Below are positions 4,189-29,957 of a stretch of 64,000 nucleotides of DNA, in pieces. Numbering within the stretch: the stretch's first letter is position 1; every line of letters begins with the position of its first letter. Origin of the DNA: an uncultured Planctomycetia bacterium. GTDB taxonomy: Bacteria > Omnitrophota > Gorgyraeia > 2-01-FULL-45-10. The stretch covers positions 64,672-128,671 of the forward strand of contig CAYGRZ010000001.1 of the NCBI GenBank assembly GCA_964352425.1, read 5' to 3'. The notes beneath the pieces were generated by a model. It searched no databases and was not told where the DNA came from. It saw only the letters and a program-made list of their open reading frames with translations. A program made the position numbers and the translations under genes.

Positions 4189-4556
4189 CAAGGGGAGTGG
4201 CCATCCCGCGATAGAAGGGAAGTTTCTAGTATTTGAGATGGTCGCAGGCGGCGGGACTTTTGCGCGAAGCCTGAAGCGGCGAATTTAAGACCTATGCCGA
4301 TGTTATGTGAGCACAATGAAAATGTTAGGTCTTTTGTGAAGAAGAAAAAGGGTTATATATAAGGATTTTTCCATATTAAAAGAACCGAGGATGCCCGAGG
4401 CCGCTTCCATGCGGCCGAGTTCCGCAGGTTCCCCTTTTTCGACTGAGCAAAAGACCGACCTCGAGCGAAGCGAGAGGGAACATTTTCGCTGCCACCTTTT
4501 AGGAGGCTTGTGCGAACATAGCGAGGCATAGGTCTGGAAACAAAAAAAGGATAGCG

Positions 4557-5456
4557 ATGAGCATTCTGGTAATAGGATCGGTGGCGCTTGATTCGGTGCA
4601 GACGCCATTCGGGAAAAAGACGGAAGTGCTCGGAGGGTCGGCGACGTTCTTCTCTCTCGCGGCATCATTCTTCAACAAGGTCGATATCGTGGCGACCGTC
4701 GGCGAGGACTTCCCGAAGCGGTACGTGACGATGTTCAGGAACAAGGGGATAGGTACCGTTGGGCTTACCGTATCGAAAGGCGAGACCTTCAGATGGAAGG
4801 GCCGCTACGACTACGATCTGAATACCGCGCACACGATATCGACGCACCTCAACGTATTCAGGGACTTCGACCCGCAGGTCCCCAGGCACCTGCGCTCGCC
4901 CGATTTCCTGTTCCTGGCAAACATTGACCCGGACCTTCAATACCGGGTTCTGCAGCAGGTCAAGCGCCCCCGGCTTGTCGCGTGCGATTCGATGAATTAC
5001 TGGATAGCCACGAAGCGCAAATCGCTCGAGCGGCTGCTCGACAAGATCGACATCCTGCTCCTGAACGACGCCGAGGCGCGGCAGCTGAGCGGTGAATCCA
5101 ACCTGATCAGGGCCGCGCGGCTCGTCATATCGTTCGGGCCGAAGGCGGTCATCATCAAGCGGGGAGAGCACGGCGTCCTTTACTTCTCCAAGAAAGCCCA
5201 TTTCGTTGCGCCGGCATACCTTCTCGATACGATATGCGATCCCACTGGCGCAGGCGATACGTTCGCGGGCGGCATGATGGGTTATTTAAGCAGGTCGAAG
5301 GTTGTAGATGACGCACGCATCAGGAAGAGCATCATTTACGGGAGCATCATGGCTTCGTTCACTGTCGAGGATTTCAGCGTAAACAGGCTCCTCGAGATAT
5401 CGAAGAAGGACATACGGGGCCGGTTCGATCATTTCAGGAGCATAACGAAATATTAA
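4557..5456 (+). CDS. PfkB-family carbohydrate/nucleoside kinase (ribokinase-like)
   Basis: DPTGAGDTFAGG PfkB signature and an N-terminal GG motif. Confidence 0.85.
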   Translation: MSILVIGSVALDSVQTPFGKKTEVLGGSATFFSLAASFFNKVDIVATVGEDFPKRYVTMFRNKGIGTVGLTVSKGETFRWKGRYDYDLNTAHTISTHLNVFRDFDPQVPRHLRSPDFLFLANIDPDLQYRVLQQVKRPRLVACDSMNYWIATKRKSLERLLDKIDILLLNDAEARQLSGESNLIRAARLVISFGPKAVIIKRGEHGVLYFSKKAHFVAPAYLLDTICDPTGAGDTFAGGMMGYLSRSKVVDDARIRKSIIYGSIMASFTVEDFSVNRLLEISKKDIRGRFDHFRSITKY

Positions 5457-5592: not shown

Positions 5593-5666
5593 GCGAGCGT
5601 AGTTCAATGGTAGAATACTAGCTTCCCAAGCTAGATACGGGGGTTCGATTCCCCTCGCTCGCTCCA
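5593..5666 (+). tRNA. tRNA-Gly (anticodon CCC)
   Basis: Cloverleaf folds by hand: acceptor GCGAGCG/CGCTCGC, D-stem GTTC/GAAT, anticodon stem CTAGC/GCTAG with loop TTCCCAA, T-arm GGGGG-TTCGATT-CCCCT, 3' CCA encoded. Near-identical in pattern to E. coli glyU. Confidence 0.9.
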
Positions 5667-20222: not shown

Positions 20223-20644
20223 TGAAGGTCCACGAGACCGAGATCCGCGTCAGGTACCAGGAGACGGACAATATGGGCGTCGTGTACTACGCGAATTACC
20301 TCGTCTGGTTCGAGGTGGCGCGGACCGAATACATGCGCGCCTCAGGCATCTGCTACCGTACGATGGAAGAGAAGGGGATGTACATGATGGTCGCCGAGGC
20401 CCGCTGCCGGTATAAGGCACCCGCCCGATACGACGATATGGTCAAGATCCAGGCCTGGATATCGAAGATAAAAAATTCAAGCATGCAGTTCGAGTACAAA
20501 CTATGTATCGGGGACAAGCTTATTGCTACGGGCGAGTCGGTCCATGTATTTACGGGCCGTTCCGGAAGGCCCATGAGGATCCCCGAAGATATCAGAAGGC
20601 TTTGCAGGGAGGACGGTACCCCCCGCACGATCATTTCAGGTTGA
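20222..20644 (+). CDS. YbgC/4HBT-family acyl-CoA thioesterase
   Basis: MKVHETEIRVRYQETDNMGVVYYANYLVWFEVAR hot-dog fold; TAATG overlap with the GNAT stop. Confidence 0.85.
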   Translation: MKVHETEIRVRYQETDNMGVVYYANYLVWFEVARTEYMRASGICYRTMEEKGMYMMVAEARCRYKAPARYDDMVKIQAWISKIKNSSMQFEYKLCIGDKLIATGESVHVFTGRSGRPMRIPEDIRRLCREDGTPRTIISG

Positions 20645-21185
20645 GCGTTATCTCAACATCATTATAGACGAGCACGACGCTTTTCCTGTCTATCCTGACC
20701 ACCTTCGCGCCGCTGGCATATTCTCCGACTTCGACCATCGCATTATTGACTATCGCGCGCGGGCCTTCCTCGAGATACATGATCCCGTTCAATACCAGCT
20801 TCGGGGCTGTCGAGGCGAGCTCGGCGGCTTGCCGGGCGGTGGCTTGCGCCTCAACGCCGGCGGACTGGTCCAGTTCGGCCTTCGGCAGCGCCCTGTAGCG
20901 AACTTCCTGCGCGGGCGGCGTGGGCGCCTGGGCCCCCGCGTCCCGGCCGGGGCGTGTCGCGACGAGCGGCCCAAGCGATAATGAGACGAGCGCTATCGCG
21001 GCGATCAGCAGGGCCGTTGAAACCAGGATAATGGATTTCGGCAGCGGCTTCGCTTTCGCTGGCGCAGGCGCCTTGTGAGGCGCCTGTCCGGCCTCAACAG
21101 CCTTCGTCTGGCAGGGCGCGGCCTTCGATGCACCAATGCCGATGGCACCCTGAGCTTTCTTCAGCGCTTCCTGTATGATACTCAT
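20631..21185 (-). CDS. ExeB/GspB-like secretion-system protein (TM anchor plus C-terminal domain)
   Basis: Internal Met of ORF 20631..21287; TM helix IILVSTALLIAAIALVSL; translationally coupled (ATGA) to the ExeA-like ATPase. Confidence 0.6.
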   Translation of the reverse strand: MSIIQEALKKAQGAIGIGASKAAPCQTKAVEAGQAPHKAPAPAKAKPLPKSIILVSTALLIAAIALVSLSLGPLVATRPGRDAGAQAPTPPAQEVRYRALPKAELDQSAGVEAQATARQAAELASTAPKLVLNGIMYLEEGPRAIVNNAMVEVGEYASGAKVVRIDRKSVVLVYNDVEITLNLK

Positions 21186-21997
21186 CTTCCTATATTTCCT
21201 TCCATCTCCTGGATGCTCTTTTCGATTATCGGCAATGTTATCGTGCGCGTCTCCATCACGTAGGCGGTGAGCATCGATTTGTCGCACACCATGTTTATGA
21301 TCCGCGGTATGCCTCCCGTAAACCGGTAGACGCAGTCGATCGCTTCAGGAGTGAATGATATCTGGCCCGTCGCGCCGGCGACGGTGAGCCGGTGGTTGAT
21401 ATAGTCTCCGACCTCGTCTTTCTCGAGAGGCGTTATATGAAACCTCACCGCGATGCGCTGGCGCAGCTGCTTCAGGCTCGGCGAACTCAGCTTGTTCTTC
21501 AGTTCCGGCTGGCCCACGAGGATTATCTGGAACAGCTTCTCCTTATCCGTCTCGAGGTTGGAGAGCATGCGAATCTCTTCGAGGATCGAGGCTTTGAGGT
21601 TCTGCGCCTCGTCTATTATGAGGATGACATTGTTGCCCCTGGTCAACTCTTCGATAAGGAAGTTATTCAGCTGTTTGATCAGCGCGACCTTGGTCTTCTT
21701 CGTGACGACCATCCCGTAATCTTCGAGTATCGCCTGCAGGAGCTGCATTTCGGGAAGCGTGGAATTGAAGATGAAGGCGCTCTTTGTGTTCCGGTCGAGC
21801 TTGCTTAAGAGCGCCCTGCAGAGCGTCGTCTTGCCGGCGCCGATCTCGCCGGTTATCTCGATAAAACCCTTGCGCTCCTTTATGCCGTACAGCAGGTGGG
21901 AGAAGGCCTCCCGGTGCACGCGGCTTAAGTAAAGGAAGTTCGGGTCGCTCGTTATGTTGAATGGCTTTTCTTTGAGGCCGAAAAATTCTCTATACAT
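21182..21997 (-). CDS. ExeA/GspA/MshM-like AAA ATPase
   Basis: FGLKEKPFNITSDPNFLYLSRVHREA...GEIGAGKTTLCRAL...IIDEAQNL. Confidence 0.85.
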   Translation of the reverse strand: MYREFFGLKEKPFNITSDPNFLYLSRVHREAFSHLLYGIKERKGFIEITGEIGAGKTTLCRALLSKLDRNTKSAFIFNSTLPEMQLLQAILEDYGMVVTKKTKVALIKQLNNFLIEELTRGNNVILIIDEAQNLKASILEEIRMLSNLETDKEKLFQIILVGQPELKNKLSSPSLKQLRQRIAVRFHITPLEKDEVGDYINHRLTVAGATGQISFTPEAIDCVYRFTGGIPRIINMVCDKSMLTAYVMETRTITLPIIEKSIQEMEGNIGR

Positions 21998-22119: not shown

Positions 22120-22491
22120 ATGTGGAACGGCATCAACAGAAGAAGATTCCCGAGAGCAAATTACAAATGCCTCATATCGATAAAGAAGAGGCTCACGTCG
22201 AAGACCATATCGACGCATACCGAGAATATCGGCGCAGGCGGCATCTGCGTACTACTGAAGGAAGACCTCGGCCTGTTCCAGGGTGTTGATATCGAACTCT
22301 ATCTTGATGAAGCGAAGCCGCCGATAAAGAGCGGCGGTACGATCGTCTGGGTCGTGAAGAAGTCCGAGCCGAAGCAGAAGGGCGTCTACATGTACGACAC
22401 CGGCGTGGAGTTCATCGATATTCGCCCGGAAGACCGCGAGAAGATCACCGGGATCGTGGAAAACATACTGAAGGCGCGCAGACAAAAATAG
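22120..22491 (+). CDS. PilZ-domain protein (c-di-GMP receptor)
   Basis: RRRFPR (RxxxR) and TENIGAGGI (DxSxGG) PilZ motifs; GGAGGAG RBS before the ATG at 22120. Confidence 0.75.
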   Translation: MWNGINRRRFPRANYKCLISIKKRLTSKTISTHTENIGAGGICVLLKEDLGLFQGVDIELYLDEAKPPIKSGGTIVWVVKKSEPKQKGVYMYDTGVEFIDIRPEDREKITGIVENILKARRQK

Positions 22492-22511
22492 CATGTAAAT
22501 GCTATAAATAC

Positions 22512-22540
22512 TTGACAAGCGGGTGTTGGTGTGTTATACT
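22512..22540 (+). promoter_or_regulatory. sigma70-like promoter (TTGACA-17-TATACT)
   Basis: Near-consensus -35 and -10 with a 17-nt spacer, ~30 nt upstream of the 22572 RBS. Confidence 0.45.
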
Positions 22541-22571
22541 TAAGCAAATTCAGAATGGGGGGAGGTGACAG

Positions 22572-22904
22572 ATGATGAAGATGGTTAAGGGTATTATTAT
22601 ACTTGTTGCTATATTGATGGTTCTGAATATAGCGACAGCTAGTTACGCTCAGGATATGGGTAAGAAGCTCTACAGAGGTCTTGCTAACGTGGTGACCGGA
22701 TGGGTCGAGCTTCCGAAGAATATCTATGACACTAGCGTAGAGGACAACGTGCTCTCTGGTCTGACTGTCGGCTTAGCGAAAGGCGTTGGGATGACGATCG
22801 TGCGCACTGGCGCAGGAGTGTATGAAACAGCTACATTCCCGTTCCCCATACCGGAAGGCTATTGCCCGGTGTTAGAGCCGGAGTTTGTGTTCAGGGGAAA
22901 ATAA
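22572..22904 (+). CDS. small secreted protein (hypothetical, signal peptide)
   Basis: MMKMVKGIIILVAILMVLNIATASYA signal peptide; GGGGGAGGTGA RBS. Confidence 0.65.
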   Translation: MMKMVKGIIILVAILMVLNIATASYAQDMGKKLYRGLANVVTGWVELPKNIYDTSVEDNVLSGLTVGLAKGVGMTIVRTGAGVYETATFPFPIPEGYCPVLEPEFVFRGK

Positions 22905-22930
22905 TCCACAAGATTATATTTTCCGGAAAT

Positions 22931-22969
22931 AAGGGGATAGAAAGAACACTTTTTATCCCCTTATTTTTT
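22931..22969 (+). terminator. rho-independent terminator
   Basis: AAGGGGATA-13-TATCCCCTT stem followed by ATTTTTTAT. Confidence 0.55.
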
Positions 22970-23004
22970 ATACCGCCTGTATAACCCGCGCCAAGAGGAC
23001 TTAC

Positions 23005-23349
23005 GTGACCGAAAGAAGAAGGTTTTTAAGGTTTGAGACTGCCCTAAGCGCCATCTGCGATATCCTTCACGAGAAAAGCAAGGCCGCTTCCAGGGTAAAA
23101 AATATATCGAAGGAAGGCGCTCTGCTCGTCATCGACAAGAAGCTGAGAGAAGGCGACGAAATAAACCTCGCCGTTGATGTGCCCGGAGATAATGTCCCGA
23201 TATTCGCGACGTGCCAGGTTGCGTGGCAGAAGAACGCCGAGACAAATTATGAGACCGGCGTGAAGTTCACCAAGATCGCTAATTCCGATAAAGGCAGGCT
23301 TTTAGAATATATATATTTACAGTGGTTGAGGTTCCTGGACAGAGAGTAA
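23005..23349 (+). CDS. PilZ-domain protein
   Basis: RRRFLRF and NISKEGA PilZ motifs. Confidence 0.75.
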   Translation: MTERRRFLRFETALSAICDILHEKSKAASRVKNISKEGALLVIDKKLREGDEINLAVDVPGDNVPIFATCQVAWQKNAETNYETGVKFTKIANSDKGRLLEYIYLQWLRFLDRE

Positions 23350-23369
23350 CAAACACAAAACGGTGAGGT

Positions 23370-23732
23370 ATGGCGGAAGAAAAAAAAGAAGAACGGAAAG
23401 CAGAAACTCCAGCGCAGCCAACGGCCGCCGAAGCGCCCAAGGCAGAAGCGCCCAAGCAGGAAGCGCCTGCTGCAGCACCCGAGCCGCAGGCTCCGATGGC
23501 TGAGGCAGCTGGGCAGGCAGCGCCCGCAAACCCGGCGCCGGTCGCAAAGGAAGAGAAGAAGGAAACGGCGCCTGCGAAGAAAGAGAAGCCGGCGAACTGC
23601 GCGGGCTGCAAGAAGTCGATAAAGAAGAAGCGCTGGTATTACAGGGACGGCAACTACTATTGCACCAAGCGGTGCTGGACATCGGCGAAGAAGAAGGCGG
23701 AGATACCGCAAGAGACCGCGCCGGCAAGCTGA
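23370..23732 (+). CDS. Ala/Pro/Glu/Lys-rich protein with a C-terminal zinc-ribbon-like Cys motif
   Basis: Low-complexity N-terminus; CAGCKK...YYCTKRCW. Confidence 0.55.
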   Translation: MAEEKKEERKAETPAQPTAAEAPKAEAPKQEAPAAAPEPQAPMAEAAGQAAPANPAPVAKEEKKETAPAKKEKPANCAGCKKSIKKKRWYYRDGNYYCTKRCWTSAKKKAEIPQETAPAS

Positions 23733-23738
23733 TAGATT

Positions 23739-24299
23739 ATGTCGAAGGTGCAGATCCCACCCAACGAAGCCCTTTATCCGGTTCCCGTTGTCCTCGTAAG
23801 CTGCCTGGACAAAGCCAATAAGAGAGCCAACGTCATAACGATAGCGTGGTGCGGCATCGTGGCGTCGCAGCCGCCGCAGATATCGGTTTCGATCCGGCCA
23901 TCGCGCCATTCCCACGCCCTGATAACAGCCGAGAGATCGTTCGTCATAAACATCCCCACAAGCCGGATCATGGAAAAGGCCGACCTCTGCGGCATCCTTT
24001 CCGGGAAAGAGACCGATAAGTTCAAGGCCTGCTCGTTCACCGCCATCCCGGCATCAAAGGTATCCGCCCCGATGATACAAGAGTGCCCTGTCAATATCGA
24101 ATGCAAGCTTAAGGAAGTGCTGAAGCTCGGCTCCCATGACGTCTTCATCGGCGAGGTCGTGGCCGTCCACGCCGATCAGTCCGTCGTCAATAACAAGGGC
24201 CGCATCGACTACGGCAAGACTGAGCCATTCGTCTTCAACCAGGGCGAATACTGGGACCTCGGCAAAAAGATCGGCTCCTATGGCTGCTCCTCAAAATAG
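23739..24299 (+). CDS. flavin reductase-like (FMN-binding split-barrel) protein
   Basis: VVLVSC...NVITIAWCGIV...FVINIPT pattern typical of flavin reductase domains. Confidence 0.8.
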   Translation: MSKVQIPPNEALYPVPVVLVSCLDKANKRANVITIAWCGIVASQPPQISVSIRPSRHSHALITAERSFVINIPTSRIMEKADLCGILSGKETDKFKACSFTAIPASKVSAPMIQECPVNIECKLKEVLKLGSHDVFIGEVVAVHADQSVVNNKGRIDYGKTEPFVFNQGEYWDLGKKIGSYGCSSK

Positions 24300-24777
24300 A
24301 GACGCCCGAAAGAGACCCTCCTATATATTCCTGGTCAGCGCCTGCCTCGCAGGCATACACTGTACTTATAAAGGAAAGAATAAGCTGGACAGGCGCGTCA
24401 GGAGACTCGCGGACCTTGGCCTCGCCCTGCCCGTGTGCCCGGAAGTGATGGGCGGCTCATCGGCTCCCCGCCAGACGTGCGAGATAGTCGGCGGAGACGG
24501 CGCCGACGTGCTCGACAAAAAGGCGAGAGTGGTAACGCCCTCGGGGCAGGACATTTCGCGCATAGTGCTCAAAGGCGCCCGCGAGGCGTTGCGGATGGCA
24601 CAGAGATGCGGGATAAAGAAGGCCATACTGAAGTCAAAAAGCCCGTCATGCGGATGCGGCCATATATATGACGGGACATTCACCCGCCGCCTGAAGAAGG
24701 GTGACGGCGTAATGGCAGCGCTGCTGCGCCGCAACCATATCAGGGTATATACCGAAAAGGACAAAGCGCATGCCTAG
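24280..24777 (+). CDS. DUF523-family protein (TudS-like Fe-S protein)
   Basis: YIFLVSACLAGIHCTYKG...PVCPEV...SPSCG Cys motifs of DUF523; start overlaps the upstream gene by 20 nt. Confidence 0.7.
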   Translation: MAAPQNRDARKRPSYIFLVSACLAGIHCTYKGKNKLDRRVRRLADLGLALPVCPEVMGGSSAPRQTCEIVGGDGADVLDKKARVVTPSGQDISRIVLKGAREALRMAQRCGIKKAILKSKSPSCGCGHIYDGTFTRRLKKGDGVMAALLRRNHIRVYTEKDKAHA

Positions 24778-25846
24778 CAAAGTATACTACATACAATCGG
24801 ATGCCTCAGACTCGGTGACATCAGTATCTGAGAAACTGGCGAAGCTGATCGATACAAGCGGCGTCCTCGGCTGTATACAGAAGGACGATTTTACGGCCAT
24901 CAAGATGCACTTCGGCGATGAGGGCAACACAGGGCATATCAGGCATGAATGGGCACGCGAGGCCGCACGGCACGTCAGCAGGAAGACGGCCAACGCCTTC
25001 CTGGCCGACTCGAATGTAATATACAAGATCGGTAAGCGCGCTCATTCGGTAGAGCATCTGAAGATCGCCAACGAGCACGGGTTTAACCTGAACAATATCG
25101 GCCTGCCCATCCTGATAGCGGACGGGCTGCGCGGCAGGAACTTTGTCGAGGTGCCGGTTGACGGAAAGCATTTCAGCAAAGTTAAGATAGCTTCTGACTT
25201 TGCCGACTGTGACAGCATCATCGCGATGTCGCACATGACCGGCCATATAGTGACCGGCATGGGCTGCGCTATCAAGAACATCGGCATGGGCTGCGCGGCC
25301 AGGCGCGGTAAATACGAACAGCACTGCGGGGCTGCTCCGGACGTGGTTCCTGAGCATTGTGTGGGTTGCGGAGCGTGCGTCAACGTCTGTCCTGCAGGCT
25401 GCCTGACGCTCAAGGGAAAGGTGATCTCCTTCGCAAAAGAGAAATGCCTGGGCTGCGGCGAGTGCGCAGTCGTATGCAAAACGAAGGCCATAGAGATACG
25501 GTGGAGCGAGACGCTTGAAAACCTGCAGGAAAAGATGGTAGAATATGCCTGCGGGCTGGTCAAGGCAGTACGCGGGAATCTCGGGTACATAAATTTCCTG
25601 ATCAAGGTGACGAAGGACTGCGACTGCCTGGCAAAGGACGATCCGAGGATCGTCCGGGACCTCGGGATCCTCGCATCCCGCGATCCGGTCGCTATCGATA
25701 CGGCATCCGTGGACCTCATAGTGAAAGCGGCCGGCAGCGACGTCTTCAAGGCAGGGTATCCGGAGACGGACTGGTCAGTGCAGTTACAATACGCCGCCGC
25801 GTTCGGGCTCGGCAGCAGGGACTACGAATTAGAGGTAGTGAAATAA
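24770..25846 (+). CDS. DUF362-domain protein with an inserted 2x[4Fe-4S] ferredoxin module
   Basis: CVGCGACVNVCP and CLGCGECAVVC ferredoxin motifs inside a DUF362-like scaffold. Confidence 0.8.
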   Translation: MPSKVYYIQSDASDSVTSVSEKLAKLIDTSGVLGCIQKDDFTAIKMHFGDEGNTGHIRHEWAREAARHVSRKTANAFLADSNVIYKIGKRAHSVEHLKIANEHGFNLNNIGLPILIADGLRGRNFVEVPVDGKHFSKVKIASDFADCDSIIAMSHMTGHIVTGMGCAIKNIGMGCAARRGKYEQHCGAAPDVVPEHCVGCGACVNVCPAGCLTLKGKVISFAKEKCLGCGECAVVCKTKAIEIRWSETLENLQEKMVEYACGLVKAVRGNLGYINFLIKVTKDCDCLAKDDPRIVRDLGILASRDPVAIDTASVDLIVKAAGSDVFKAGYPETDWSVQLQYAAAFGLGSRDYELEVVK

Positions 25847-26196
25847 TGAATAAGGGCGACTGCATCTTCTGCAGGATCGTACGTAAAGAGATACCCGCCA
25901 CGATAGTCTTCGAAGATAAGACAACCCTGGCGTTCGAGGACGCCAAGCCGCAGGCGCCCGTACATATTCTCATCGTCCCGAAAAACCACATCGAGAAGAC
26001 CGCAGACCTCTCAAGCGCGGACATGCACATGATCGGTGAGCTCATCCTCACTGCGAAAGATATAGCGAAACAGCGGAATATCCAGGAATCGGGATACAGG
26101 ATCGTCCTGAATTGCAACCGGGACGCCGGCCAGGAGGTGTTCCATATACACCTGCACCTGCTCGGAGGCAGAAAATTCTCCTGGCCGCCGGGATAA
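25846..26196 (+). CDS. histidine-triad nucleotide-binding protein (HINT)
   Basis: CIFCRIV...HIHLHLLGG HIT motif; 116 aa. Confidence 0.85.
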   Translation: MNKGDCIFCRIVRKEIPATIVFEDKTTLAFEDAKPQAPVHILIVPKNHIEKTADLSSADMHMIGELILTAKDIAKQRNIQESGYRIVLNCNRDAGQEVFHIHLHLLGGRKFSWPPG

Positions 26197-26212
26197 TATA
26201 AGGAGTACCACA

Positions 26213-26587
26213 ATGGCTCAGCAAGAGAGAAGAAGGGCTCCCCGCATAGATGACGAGGAGTTGTCGCTGGAGCTGCACGCGGGTAATTTTGACGCGATGG
26301 CCCATACGCTGAACATCAGCGCGTCCGGCCTGTACTGCAAGGTCGACAGGGAGATGCCGCTGATGTCGAGGGTCAAGCTGATGTTGATGATCCCGGATCA
26401 GTCCGGCGCCGCCAAAGAGGTCAGGAATGTCGAAGTGGAGGGCGTGGTGGTCAGGGCCCATCCGGTGATCATCGACGGCCAGATCAAGCACTACGATGTC
26501 GCCATATTCTTCGACAGCCTCCCGCCGAAGGCCCGCGAGCTGATAGCGGGCTATATCGCCCGCAAAAAGGGCGGCGCCGGCAGGTAG
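26213..26587 (+). CDS. PilZ-domain protein
   Basis: RRRAPRI and LNISASGL PilZ motifs. Confidence 0.7.
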   Translation: MAQQERRRAPRIDDEELSLELHAGNFDAMAHTLNISASGLYCKVDREMPLMSRVKLMLMIPDQSGAAKEVRNVEVEGVVVRAHPVIIDGQIKHYDVAIFFDSLPPKARELIAGYIARKKGGAGR

Positions 26588-26600
26588 CGCGAATTTTAAG

Positions 26601-27128
26601 ATGGGCAAGATCGGGAAGCCGCACAAAGTCAAGCTGATCGTCGGATTGCTGTCGAACGATATCCCGGCGATCGAAAAGGCCACTATCCTACTGAAGAGGG
26701 AGTTCGGCAGGACGGACTTCGAAAGCGGGTGCCTTAACTTCACCCACACCGACTATTACGAAGGCGAGATGGGGACTTCCTTGAAGCGCAAATTCCTCAG
26801 CTTTGCAAAGCCGTTTAGTCTGGACCATATATGCGCGGCCAAGCTCAGGACCGACAGGCTGGAAAAGACCTTCATGCGCCGAGGCGGGCGCACGGTCAAC
26901 ATCGACCCCGGATACGTCGACTGTTCGAAGCTCGTGCTCTTCTCGACAAAAGATTATACTCACAGGATATACCTGGAGAAGGGGATTTTCGCGGAAGTCA
27001 CACTGTTCTATAAAGGCGGGACGTTCAAGGCCTGGCCGTGGACATATCCGGATTACAAGAGCGCCCCGTACATCGATATATTCAATTCGATCAGGGAGAT
27101 CTATACAACAGGGACCTCTCAGTGCTGA
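26601..27128 (+). CDS. conserved hypothetical protein (DUF4416-like)
   Basis: 175 aa ORF with an RBS; no recognisable catalytic motif. Confidence 0.65.
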   Translation: MGKIGKPHKVKLIVGLLSNDIPAIEKATILLKREFGRTDFESGCLNFTHTDYYEGEMGTSLKRKFLSFAKPFSLDHICAAKLRTDRLEKTFMRRGGRTVNIDPGYVDCSKLVLFSTKDYTHRIYLEKGIFAEVTLFYKGGTFKAWPWTYPDYKSAPYIDIFNSIREIYTTGTSQC

Positions 27129-27700
27129 TAAAGAAGAAGAGCCTCATCGTAGCGCTTGTATCGAGTTTCGTAATATGCCTCGTCCTGATCATGACGCTCG
27201 TCGGATACGCCATATACCTCGAATTGAAAGACGAGGAGTCGAGGAAGGTGTATCAGGCCATGCTCCAGAAAGTGAATGCGCAGTATTACGCTAAACATAT
27301 CGAAGTGGCGCGGCTGGGCGCTACGGTTGAGTCCGCCGGCGCGCTTAAAGGCCAACCGGTCGTCGAGGGCATTGTCAGGAACAGCGGGTATAAAGACATA
27401 TCGGACATCCTGCTGAAAGTGAAGTTCCTCGACCGCGACGGCGCCATAGTGTATGAGGCGGTATTCCACCCGCAGGAGCCGTCGCTTGGCTCTTCAAGCC
27501 TTTCGAAGGTCTCGATCCCTTATTTTTCAGAGCACTCAAAAACCGTCATCAGGCCTGAAGGGTCTCTTCCATTTAAACGGATACTCACTAACTGCCCCGC
27601 GGAGATCGTCGGTGAACTCAAAAACGGGAAGGCCGCTAAGGGTGTGGCCGGCAGATGGTCCGGCACGTTCGATTACGAGATCCTCGCCATAAACTTCTAG
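27122..27700 (+). CDS. membrane-anchored hypothetical protein (GTG start inferred)
   Basis: N-terminal TM LIVALVSSFVICLVLIMTLVGYAIY; in-frame GTG overlaps the upstream stop. Confidence 0.5.
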   Translation: MLIKKKSLIVALVSSFVICLVLIMTLVGYAIYLELKDEESRKVYQAMLQKVNAQYYAKHIEVARLGATVESAGALKGQPVVEGIVRNSGYKDISDILLKVKFLDRDGAIVYEAVFHPQEPSLGSSSLSKVSIPYFSEHSKTVIRPEGSLPFKRILTNCPAEIVGELKNGKAAKGVAGRWSGTFDYEILAINF

Positions 27701-27708
27701 ACCCCAAT

Positions 27709-29418
27709 ATGAGAAATATTTATATCGCGGTCGCTGCGTTCCTCCTCATCAGCCTCGTCCTCTTCATCTTATCATTCGTCTTCCTGGACATCGCGAAACA
27801 TACAACCTACCATTACATCGTCAATGCCGGCGGGCGCGACATCGGCACCATCCGCGTCGATACATTCATCACGGAAGACAAACTGATCTATAAATCTGCG
27901 GCCAACATGCCGTGCGCGCCGCAATTCACGGAATACAGGACGCGGCTCGACCTGGACAGGAAATATAATCTCGAAAGCTTCACCAAGGAGAGGACGGCCG
28001 GCCGGGCCACGGATCTTATCTACATTGAAATTTTCAGGAACATGGCCTCGTTCGTATCGAGATTTCAGTCAAAGTTCGCCTGCGTCGAGGGCATGCCGGT
28101 GAAGAGGGGCACATTCGTATTTGAGGAAGACGCGCCGGTCACCTATATCCCGCTCATAGAAAATTATAATTTTATCAGAGGCCGGTCCCAGGGATTTAGT
28201 GCGCTTATCCCGGCTGCGGCGTTGGGTATGCCCCCGATGAAACGGTTTGTCATCCTGACATCACTGCGGGATGAATACGTCAAGATCGGGCCGAGGAAGA
28301 TCAAGACCGAAAACCTCGTGGTGAAGATACGCGATTACCCGCAGGCGAACATATGGGTGTCAAAGGCCGACAGGGCCATCATCAGGATCGAGATACCGTC
28401 GCAGAACCTCACAATAACGAGGGCCTTCGGTCTCAAGGCGCTGCAGGCAAGGCAATACCGGCCGAAGGCCGATGGCTACGCTACGCGGGAGGTCACCGTC
28501 AAATCCAGGTCCGCGGAACTGGGCGGCAGCCTGGCCATCCCATCCGGCGAGGGCGCATTCCCCGCCGTCCTGCTCGTGTGGGGCCAGGGCGCGCAGGACA
28601 GATATCATCAGGGCCTCTTCGCATCGGTCGCGGACTATCTGGCGAAGAACGGTTTCTGCGTCTTAAGCCTCGACAAGCGCGGCGTAGGCTCCAGCGGCGG
28701 CGACATCGCATCGACGACTGCCGCTGATATCGTCGATGACATAGATGCTGCGGTCTCATTTCTGGCAAGCCGGCCGCAGGTCGATGCCAGGATGATCGCG
28801 CTGATAGGGCACGGCAGGGGGGCCTCTTATGCGATGAAAGCTGTTACAAGAAACGAGGCCGTTCGCGGGTTAATCCTGATGTCGCCGTCTATCGGCGCTG
28901 CTTACGATACGCGCTCACGCCTGGAAACGCTCAAGGCAGCTGCTTCCAGGACGAGATGGAGCGATGAATACCTGAGCCTTGTCGCCAGGACTCTTGAGGA
29001 GACCGAAAGCAGGGTCCTGGCAACGAAGGGAAACTGGGCTTATATCCTGGGCAAGAAATGTTTCATGGGGAGCCTGAGGGAAGAGATGGGCGATAAGCCC
29101 ATAGAAACGATAAGCAGGGTGAAGGTGCCGGTCCTTATCCTGCAGGGCGGCAATGATGATGAGGCCCTGGGAGAATCCGGTTCATATCTGGACAAGGCGC
29201 TGTCAGATGCCGGCAACCAGGCGCGAACCCTGACCTATTATGCTTATCTTGGACCGTTCCTGGGGGAGGCTGTCAATGACGGCATCCACCGGATACATTA
29301 CGAGACAGACAAGCAGGTGCTGGAAAATATAAAAAGTTGGCTCAACAAGCTGCCGGCCCAAGCCGCACGCGCGCCTGAAGAGGTACCGACGGAGCAGTCG
29401 GCACCCGCAGGCTCGTAA
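27709..29418 (+). CDS. membrane-anchored alpha/beta-hydrolase-fold protein (S9/dienelactone-hydrolase-like); nucleophile position reads GHGRGA
   Basis: TM anchor, then an alpha/beta hydrolase C-terminal region (VLLVWGQGAQ...LIGHGRGASYAM...LILQGGND). Confidence 0.8.
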   Translation: MRNIYIAVAAFLLISLVLFILSFVFLDIAKHTTYHYIVNAGGRDIGTIRVDTFITEDKLIYKSAANMPCAPQFTEYRTRLDLDRKYNLESFTKERTAGRATDLIYIEIFRNMASFVSRFQSKFACVEGMPVKRGTFVFEEDAPVTYIPLIENYNFIRGRSQGFSALIPAAALGMPPMKRFVILTSLRDEYVKIGPRKIKTENLVVKIRDYPQANIWVSKADRAIIRIEIPSQNLTITRAFGLKALQARQYRPKADGYATREVTVKSRSAELGGSLAIPSGEGAFPAVLLVWGQGAQDRYHQGLFASVADYLAKNGFCVLSLDKRGVGSSGGDIASTTAADIVDDIDAAVSFLASRPQVDARMIALIGHGRGASYAMKAVTRNEAVRGLILMSPSIGAAYDTRSRLETLKAAASRTRWSDEYLSLVARTLEETESRVLATKGNWAYILGKKCFMGSLREEMGDKPIETISRVKVPVLILQGGNDDEALGESGSYLDKALSDAGNQARTLTYYAYLGPFLGEAVNDGIHRIHYETDKQVLENIKSWLNKLPAQAARAPEEVPTEQSAPAGS

Positions 29419-29426
29419 TATTAGGT

Positions 29427-29455
29427 TTGACTTTATTTTTTTCGTATGATATACT
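29427..29455 (+). promoter_or_regulatory. sigma70-like promoter (TTGACT-17-TATACT)
   Basis: Consensus-like hexamers with a 17-nt spacer, ~95 nt upstream of the PilZ gene at 29553. Confidence 0.45.
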
Positions 29456-29552
29456 CCGACAATATTACGCCGGGAACAGGAAATTGCGGCAATCCTGCCG
29501 TAAAGCCGGACTGATCGAAACGAAGAATGCGCTACAGGAGCGACCCAGACCT

Positions 29553-29957
29553 ATGGTAAAAAAGGTACAGGATATTTTCGTAGAGAGAAGGCGCTACGTT
29601 CGCCTGCAGACGCCGATACCGATCGCCTATACCGTCCCGCAGACCGGCAGCGTGCATACCACCAGCACCAAGAATATTTCCGCGGACGGCCTGAGGCTGG
29701 AGACCCATGATAGGGCGCTCAAAGAGGGCGACCTGATAGAGTTGAAGATGACGATTGCAGGCGCGCCGAATCCCGTTCATGCCAAAGGCAAGGTTATCTG
29801 GAAGAAGAAGATGTCGCTCGAAGACGCCGCGCCCTTCGACTGCGGCATAGAGTTCGCCGAGATCGAAGAGGACAACAAAAATACGTTCCTGAAGTTCCTG
29901 TGCGACCTCATATATGATATCAAAAAGGAGCCAAAACATGCCCGTAAGAAAGAATGA
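29553..29957 (+). CDS. PilZ-domain protein
   Basis: RRRYVRLQ and KNISADGL PilZ motifs; internal ATG of ORF 29427 (the upstream part overlaps the promoter). Confidence 0.75.
   Translation: MVKKVQDIFVERRRYVRLQTPIPIAYTVPQTGSVHTTSTKNISADGLRLETHDRALKEGDLIELKMTIAGAPNPVHAKGKVIWKKKMSLEDAAPFDCGIEFAEIEEDNKNTFLKFLCDLIYDIKKEPKHARKKE

Follow-up and report, generated by a model that had tools for sequence, protein, structure and literature searches.

The window analyzed here (the whole 64,000-nucleotide (nt) stretch of contig CAYGRZ010000001.1, from an uncultured Omnitrophota bacterium) contains four overlapping genes encoding a flavoredoxin-type protein (open reading frame 1, ORF1; F), a TudS-family DUF523 protein (ORF2; T), a DUF362 protein with a ferredoxin insert (ORF3; D) and a HINT hydrolase (ORF4; H) (Table 1). 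We find that the F-T-D-H juxtaposition is probably inherited and that the four proteins are ordinary members of known families. Comparison of homologous loci indicates that the genes probably act independently, as neighbours by descent in a compact, presumably polycistronic block of one Omnitrophota clade. An earlier note on this DNA had proposed a dedicated pathway for sulfur-modified nucleotides. That proposal does not fare well against the piecemeal loss of these genes in related genomes, the lack of adjacency between them outside the clade, and the non-redox chemistry of TudS.

The four overlapping genes lie where the earlier note had placed them, with overlaps of 20 nt (ORF1/ORF2), 8 nt (ORF2/ORF3) and 1 nt (ORF3/ORF4), and an independent gene caller returned the same four calls on a contig with identical proteins. 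They are probably co-transcribed. As a four-gene operon, however, they have no boundary: ORF1 to ORF4 are the inner segment of a 10-gene run (23005-29418) in which spacers are ≤20 nt throughout, and the genes downstream of them (26213-29418) all overlap or are separated by ≤16 nt. Thus the four genes do not form a bounded operon but are part of a longer, tightly packed block of at least 10 genes. Of the 15 other adjacent gene pairs that share a strand on the source contig, 4 overlap as well; overlap is thus ordinary in this DNA and no sign of special coupling. Scans for promoters and terminators show no boundary inside the block: no + strand terminator-like site was found from 22881 to 27551, terminator-like sites were not enriched over shuffled sequences, and neither were promoter-like sites (9 found, 5.8 ± 2.8 expected from shuffles).

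To judge recurrence, we compared related loci. The closest homologues bearing a name come from Candidatus Omnitrophota metagenome-assembled genomes. Three relatives with 58-61% DUF523 identity, the first to be compared, are syntenic with the window over the entire ∼10 kb neighbourhood, which opens with YjbQ, GNAT and 4HBT, continues with several PilZ genes and closes with DUF4416 and an alpha/beta hydrolase. Recurrence alone is therefore not specific to the four genes. The conserved backbone (22120-29957) comprises 3-5 small PilZ genes, a Lys-rich protein, a 110-residue protein of no known family, DUF4416, a DUF3426-like protein and a ∼570-residue alpha/beta hydrolase. Its upstream gene order is kept in L003, L004, L006, L008, L088-L111 and L169-L172, and its downstream genes also follow in related loci. 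Between the Lys-rich gene (K) and a PilZ gene (P) lies a slot that holds F, T, D and H. We scored presence and absence in this slot at the locus level, in 29 lineages (DUF362 dereplication at 95%) and in loci anchored on DUF523 and on flavoredoxin; the resulting counts carry shared ancestry between lineages and are not phylogenetically independent.

Nine subsets of the four genes occupy the slot (FTDH, FTD, TD, FD, D, DH, TH, FH and F), and their order never changes. The full set, or an arrangement consistent with it, is present in 10 of the 29 lineages, so the four genes do occur together elsewhere. Of the two findings named in the earlier note as refuting it (no HMM support for DUF523, or four genes that never recur together), neither was made. 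The other arrangements are FTD-P (L095, L100), TD-P (L104), K-TD (L094), FD-P (L101, L102), K-D-P (L091, L109), K-DH-P (L097), K-TH-P (L008, DUF523-anchored, with the backbone kept), K-FH-P (L169/L170, flavoredoxin-anchored) and K-F-P (L171/L172, flavoredoxin-anchored). In a neighbour-joining tree of DUF362 the basal position goes to a locus with all four genes (L113). Partial sets branch from within groups of full ones; L091, for instance, which retains D alone, falls within the window's own clade. The simplest reading of these patterns suggests an ancestral F-T-D-H set from which the HIT gene and TudS were each lost at least four times, and flavoredoxin at least three times, in separate events. 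An obligate pathway should lose its components jointly; scattered single-gene losses, and a locus-level co-occurrence profile in which members are not gained or lost together, therefore speak against such a pathway.

The slot also accepts unrelated genes: in L111 a 253-residue gene (4215-4976), fumarylacetoacetate-hydrolase-like as judged by eye only, stands ahead of D-H in place of flavoredoxin and TudS. In six DUF362-anchored loci, which lack F, T and H, the order is K-rich, PilZ, DUF4416, DUF362, PilZ. DUF362 is still found with the K-rich, PilZ and DUF4416 genes in a second arrangement (L132, L133, L136, L144, L159).

Outside this clade the partners are not associated. We scanned 80 DUF523-anchored loci, one genome per species (76 non-Omnitrophota, 4 Omnitrophota), searching their ORFs with hidden Markov models (HMMs) built from the window proteins. 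In the window the four genes are codirectional and tight or overlapping, and the unrelated genes that flank them are packed just as tightly. Where the surrounding synteny is lost, adjacency is not conserved: a nearby flavoredoxin, HINT or true DUF362 gene was found in 0 of the 76 non-Omnitrophota DUF523 loci, and adjacency to a partner in 0 of 48 DUF362-Fer4 loci. The neighbours of DUF523 outside Omnitrophota are instead MutS2 (32 loci, with DUF523 directly downstream), U32 peptidase (25 loci, ∼2.4 kb upstream), an FMN-dependent dehydrogenase (FMN_dh, 14 loci) and, each adjacent in 7 loci, RNase R and a ThiI-like/NFACT-R protein, as exemplified among loci L009-L087 by L034 (3151-5880), L015 (702-3185), L018 (422-3166) and L042 (5994-7478). 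This context suggests a connection of the subfamily with RNA turnover. Apparent DUF362 neighbours in Clostridia (E∼1e-7) and in Hadesarchaea L012 (1e-76) were discarded, as they match through the ferredoxin domain only; the L012 protein is a MinD/ParA-Fer4 protein. Within Omnitrophota, L025, L028 and L040 carry DUF523 without the other three partners, and direct reading of L025 shows an unrelated gene context. A DUF362-anchored metagenome scan (80 loci) gave a similar picture: no same-strand neighbour is conserved across the 48 other DUF362-Fer4 loci (41-47% identity), and the loci beyond these and the six that lack F, T and H share the window backbone.

All four family names given in the earlier note lie above the Pfam thresholds. 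ORF2 matches PF04463 (2-thiour_desulf/DUF523) at 1.3e-40 (139.2 bits, cut-off 34.7) and aligns with the TudS structures 6z92/6z96 at 2.4e-19 over 144 residues. In TudS_A, the cluster is held by C10, C43 and C104, and catalysis depends on Glu45, Ser101 and Ser103 (PMC10611767). C22, C53 and C124 of ORF2 are in register with the cluster cysteines and are invariant in the subfamily alignment (A1). E55, S121 and S123 are in register with the catalytic Glu/Ser/Ser; in A1, E55 and S121 are invariant and the S123 position is Ser or Ala. ORF2 also shares with TudS (TudS_A, 6Z92/6Z96) the stand-alone form of ∼165 residues. Judging from these conserved residues, ORF2 is most likely a TudS-type [4Fe-4S] enzyme, and its assignment to the TudS family stands.

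The TudS reaction is hydrolytic and non-redox; it is unaffected by Ti(III) citrate, by dithionite and by each of four oxidants (PMC10611767). The known mechanism therefore offers no electron donor role to ORF1 or ORF3, and the suggestion that the flavin-reductase-like protein supplies electrons loses its footing. ORF2 would hydrolytically strip sulfur from 4-thiouracil, 4-thiouridine (s4U) or 4-thio-uridine monophosphate (4-thio-UMP) arising from tRNA turnover, yielding uracil or UMP plus sulfide, with external electrons unnecessary. The RNase R and ThiI-like genes that accompany this subfamily in other lineages accord with such a salvage role. The TudS catalytic domain is also common to RudS, a TudS-DUF1722 fusion that erases s4U from tRNA; Pfam searches found no DUF1722 in ORF2 or its neighbours, and overexpression of stand-alone TudS in E. 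coli left the s4U content of tRNA unchanged (PMC11417400).

ORF2 nevertheless departs from TudS_A in an extra cysteine, in the residue at the Arg17 position, in an insertion and in a basic N-terminus. The extra cysteine, C28 (24361-24363), lies 6 residues past ligand C22 at the V16 position of TudS_A; all sequences in A1 have it, and so do ∼91 of 100 subfamily members. In TudS_A, docking places Arg17 in contact with the nucleotide phosphate, which accounts for the preference for 4-thio-UMP (PMC10611767). The equivalent residue is Thr29 in ORF2 and varies in the subfamily (R 34, K 27, T 21, A 4). This contact is an auxiliary trait that does not define the TudS family. The subfamily also carries a ∼10-residue insertion (GGDGxDVLD) relative to TudS_A, and the Omnitrophota orthologues a basic 16-residue N-terminal extension. 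The cysteine, the variable phosphate contact and the insertion would suit a different, possibly redox, Fe-S enzyme in which C28 ligates the fourth iron, free in TudS, or bears a persulfide. We consider this improbable, however: the three cluster cysteines and E55, S121 and S123 are all kept, the extra Cys coexists with Arg in some members (CRYDG), and Bacillota members lie beside genes for RNase R, a ThiI-like protein and MutS2, a context in keeping with an RNA or nucleotide role. An alternative start of ORF2 (ATG 24136) was rejected because it lies 164 nt inside ORF1, while the start at 24280 gives an N-terminus conserved among orthologues.

The ORF2 subfamily extends over Omnitrophota, Bacillota, Chloroflexota, Poribacteria and several archaea. 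Three further DUF523 proteins (P0071, P0087 and P0118; 285-287 residues) are tandem duplications with two complete TudS-like domains per chain, each retaining the three cluster cysteines and the Glu/Ser motifs. In Hadesarchaea L012 (5254-6447), a YjeF_N domain (NAD(P)HX epimerase-type) and DUF523 form a single uninterrupted ORF.

ORF1 matches PF01613 (Flavin_Reduct) at 1.3e-30 (107 bits, cut-off 27). Its best solved relatives are flavoredoxins, from Desulfovibrio gigas (2d5m, 6.4e-34 over 168 aligned residues, with a similar length of 190 vs 186 residues) and Methanosarcina acetivorans (3bnk, 1.3e-27). In contrast to the curated NAD(P)H:flavin reductases of two-component monooxygenases, it belongs to none of the NCBIfam flavin-reductase equivalogs (RutF, StyB, HpaC, HsaB and others), scoring far under every cut-off; the top score is 44 bits for RutF, against a cut-off of 255. 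ORF1 would thus be an electron carrier of the flavoredoxin type, binding flavin mononucleotide (FMN). The M. acetivorans flavoredoxin reportedly takes electrons from ferredoxin; electron exchange between ORF1 and ORF3 is conceivable but speculative.

ORF3 matches PF04015 (DUF362) at 5.7e-43 (147.7 bits, cut-off 24) and Fer4 at 45.7 bits, and is named 'uncharacterized Fe-S center protein' by JGI. Of the two CxxCxxCxxxCP motifs described in the earlier note, the first is as described (C197/200/203/207, followed by P), whereas the second (C226/229/232/236) ends in C-K. All eight of these cysteines are invariant in an alignment of 31 orthologues (A2), as are K45, H47, H96, H103, H155, H159, K169, C175, H185, C284, D285 and C286. 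The insert matches polyferredoxins and ferredoxins in the PDB; outside it, a PDB search found no sequence relative of ORF3 among solved structures, and a PDB profile search with the DUF362 core lacking the insert (A3) gave chance matches only (E>1), without reaching LarA. No account of a function for DUF362 turned up in a literature search.

The AlphaFold model of ORF3 has a mean predicted local distance difference test score (pLDDT) of 81 and a predicted template modelling score (pTM) of 0.82, with pLDDT<50 in the loop 172-187. Its top Foldseek matches in the PDB are the lactate racemase LarA (8ezf, 6c1w, 2yjg; E of 2e-4, probability 1.0), at a template modelling (TM) score of ∼0.4 and ∼10% identity. 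This match agrees with the placement of DUF362 and DUF2088/LarA in a common Pfam clan, CL0471 (PMC11770544). In LarA1, R75, H108, H174, K184 and H200 serve in nickel-pincer nucleotide binding or catalysis, and H159/K169/H185 of ORF3 (25244-25324) repeat the +10/+16 spacing of H174/K184/H200; this is a lead, as there is no residue-level alignment. In contrast to LarA, ORF3 carries a 2×[4Fe-4S] insert. To our knowledge, LarA also has no counterparts of the invariant C175, C284 and C286 (C284-D-C286 at 25619-25627), which could form another metal site. The model suggests that ORF3 is an enzyme with the LarA fold, connected to two [4Fe-4S] clusters.

ORF4 matches PF01230 (HIT) at 1.5e-27 (96.5 bits, cut-off 21.5) and carries the HxHxHxx motif (H100-I-H102-L-H104-L-L) and an N-terminal CxxC. 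Its similarity to HINT1 and E. coli HinT is full-length: the solved relatives are 6d6j (5.3e-41), rabbit and human HINT1 (∼1e-34 to 2e-35) and E. coli hinT (2.5e-31). It scores 120.4 bits against the cut-off of 206 of the NCBIfam HinT equivalog (NF007965) and is otherwise unremarkable. Its closeness to HINT1 and HinT makes ORF4 most likely a general nucleoside-5'-phosphoramidase of the HINT type.

How firmly can independence of the four genes be held? Several points weigh against it. The DUF362 tree comes from a single protein by neighbour joining, without support values. The FTDH order is found in loci whose DUF362 is 45-100% identical to that of the window. The tightest pair is F-T, retained in 13 of the 15 lineages that have T, with overlaps of 4-20 nt; this persistence could reflect selection, not only inertia. 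A gene missing from the slot may sit elsewhere in the genome. The HMM for flavoredoxin derives from close relatives and may miss divergent Flavin_Reduct neighbours. Neighbourhoods outside the clade were compared through DUF523 and DUF362 anchors; the flavoredoxin homologues among the matches listed (at least 120) are all ≥61% identical, the named ones being Omnitrophota. Finally, HINT1 converts nucleoside 5'-phosphorothioates to phosphates in vitro with release of H2S (PMC8775712), as the earlier note had correctly stated, which gives T and H a common product and a common class of substrates.

One alternative is a pairwise coupling, in which F and D form a redox pair, T and H a nucleotide-salvage pair, or both, interleaved by history, or in which F serves T, the four-Cys DUF523 variant. 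F and D do adjoin without T (L101, L102), and T and H without F and D (L008); the F-T pairing is the closest of all. Yet each pair is broken somewhere, by D alone, D-H, T-D without F, F-H or F alone. The C28-bearing DUF523 subfamily has no flavoredoxin neighbour in the 76 other loci, DUF362-Fer4 elsewhere mostly lacks a conserved same-strand neighbour, and the slot counts carry the shared ancestry noted above. We therefore regard such coupling as rather unlikely, though it is the strongest of the alternatives.

The dedicated pathway fares worse. Here TudS and HINT would remove sulfur from thio-nucleobases or phosphorothioate nucleotides, for salvage or detoxification, while flavoredoxin and DUF362-Fer4 supplied or removed electrons. 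Overlapping co-directional genes, the full set in one order across ∼10 dereplicated lineages, the TudS residues of ORF2 and the phosphorothioate activity of HINT1 would all accord with it. But each gene is lost independently in the slot, the partners part company outside the clade, TudS catalysis is non-redox and responds to neither reductants nor oxidants, HINT enzymes are housekeeping proteins of near-universal occurrence, and the supposed operon runs on, equally tightly spaced, into unrelated PilZ and DUF4416 genes; we hold a four-protein pathway to be very doubtful. Equally hard to credit, taken jointly, is a bolder proposal: an ancestral FTDH module in which a four-Cys TudS and HINT desulfurate thio-nucleotides while flavoredoxin and DUF362-Fer4 handle the sulfide or persulfide or preserve the cluster, together with, as a separate matter, a LarA-like DUF362 bearing a tethered cofactor at H159/K169/H185 and wired to Fe-S clusters.

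The features of the block are collected in Table 1. Upstream of it, a divergent - strand pair (20631-21997) encodes an AAA_22/AAA_16 ATPase (271 residues) and an Ala/Pro-rich protein of ∼184 residues, overlapping by 4 nt; every related Omnitrophota locus examined has this pair in the corresponding place. Neither Rfam nor tRNA scans revealed a riboswitch or RNA element close to the block; across the 64 kb of the window, the sole RNA gene detected is a tRNA-Gly(CCC) at 5593-5666.

Table 1. Genes and signals of the packed block and its surroundings (positions in the window; aa, amino acids).
Feature	Position	Strand	Length	Description	Basis or remark
ORF1 (F)	23739-24299	+	186 aa	Flavoredoxin-type FMN-binding split-barrel protein (Flavin_Reduct)	PF01613
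ORF2 (T)	24280-24777	+	165 aa	Stand-alone TudS-family (DUF523) [4Fe-4S] desulfidase homologue	PF04463
ORF3 (D)	24770-25846	+	358 aa	DUF362 protein, LarA-like fold predicted	PF04015 and model
Ferredoxin insert of ORF3	25331-25507	+	residues ∼188-246	2×[4Fe-4S]	Fer4, Fer4_7 and related families
ORF4 (H)	25846-26196	+	116 aa	Canonical HINT-branch histidine-triad hydrolase	PF01230
PilZ gene	22120-22491	+			Upstream backbone
Sigma-70-like site	22512-22540	+		Best match near block start, TTGACA-17-TATACT, 11/12	Consensus match only
Protein without Pfam match	22572-22904	+	110 aa		Upstream backbone
PilZ gene	23005-23349	+			Upstream backbone
Lys/Ala/Pro-rich protein (K)	23370-23732	+	120 aa	C-terminal CxxC...CxxxC	Stops 6 nt before ORF1
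PilZ gene (P)	26213-26587	+			Begins 16 nt past ORF4
DUF4416 gene	26601-27128	+			Downstream backbone
DUF3426-like protein	27122-27700	+	192 aa		Downstream backbone
Alpha/beta hydrolase	27709-29418	+			Downstream backbone

These results carry a caution: in a compact genome, overlapping start and stop codons together with plausible domain names do not establish a pathway. They also leave two minor leads, the fourth cysteine of the TudS subfamily and the LarA-like His/Lys/His site of DUF362. Were the minority readings true, the fourth cysteine would mark a four-Cys TudS branch, possibly with different chemistry, and DUF362, a large family still lacking characterisation, would gain a first functional context. 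A LarA-like DUF362 protein with a tethered cofactor would, if real, add a new redox branch to the LarA superfamily.

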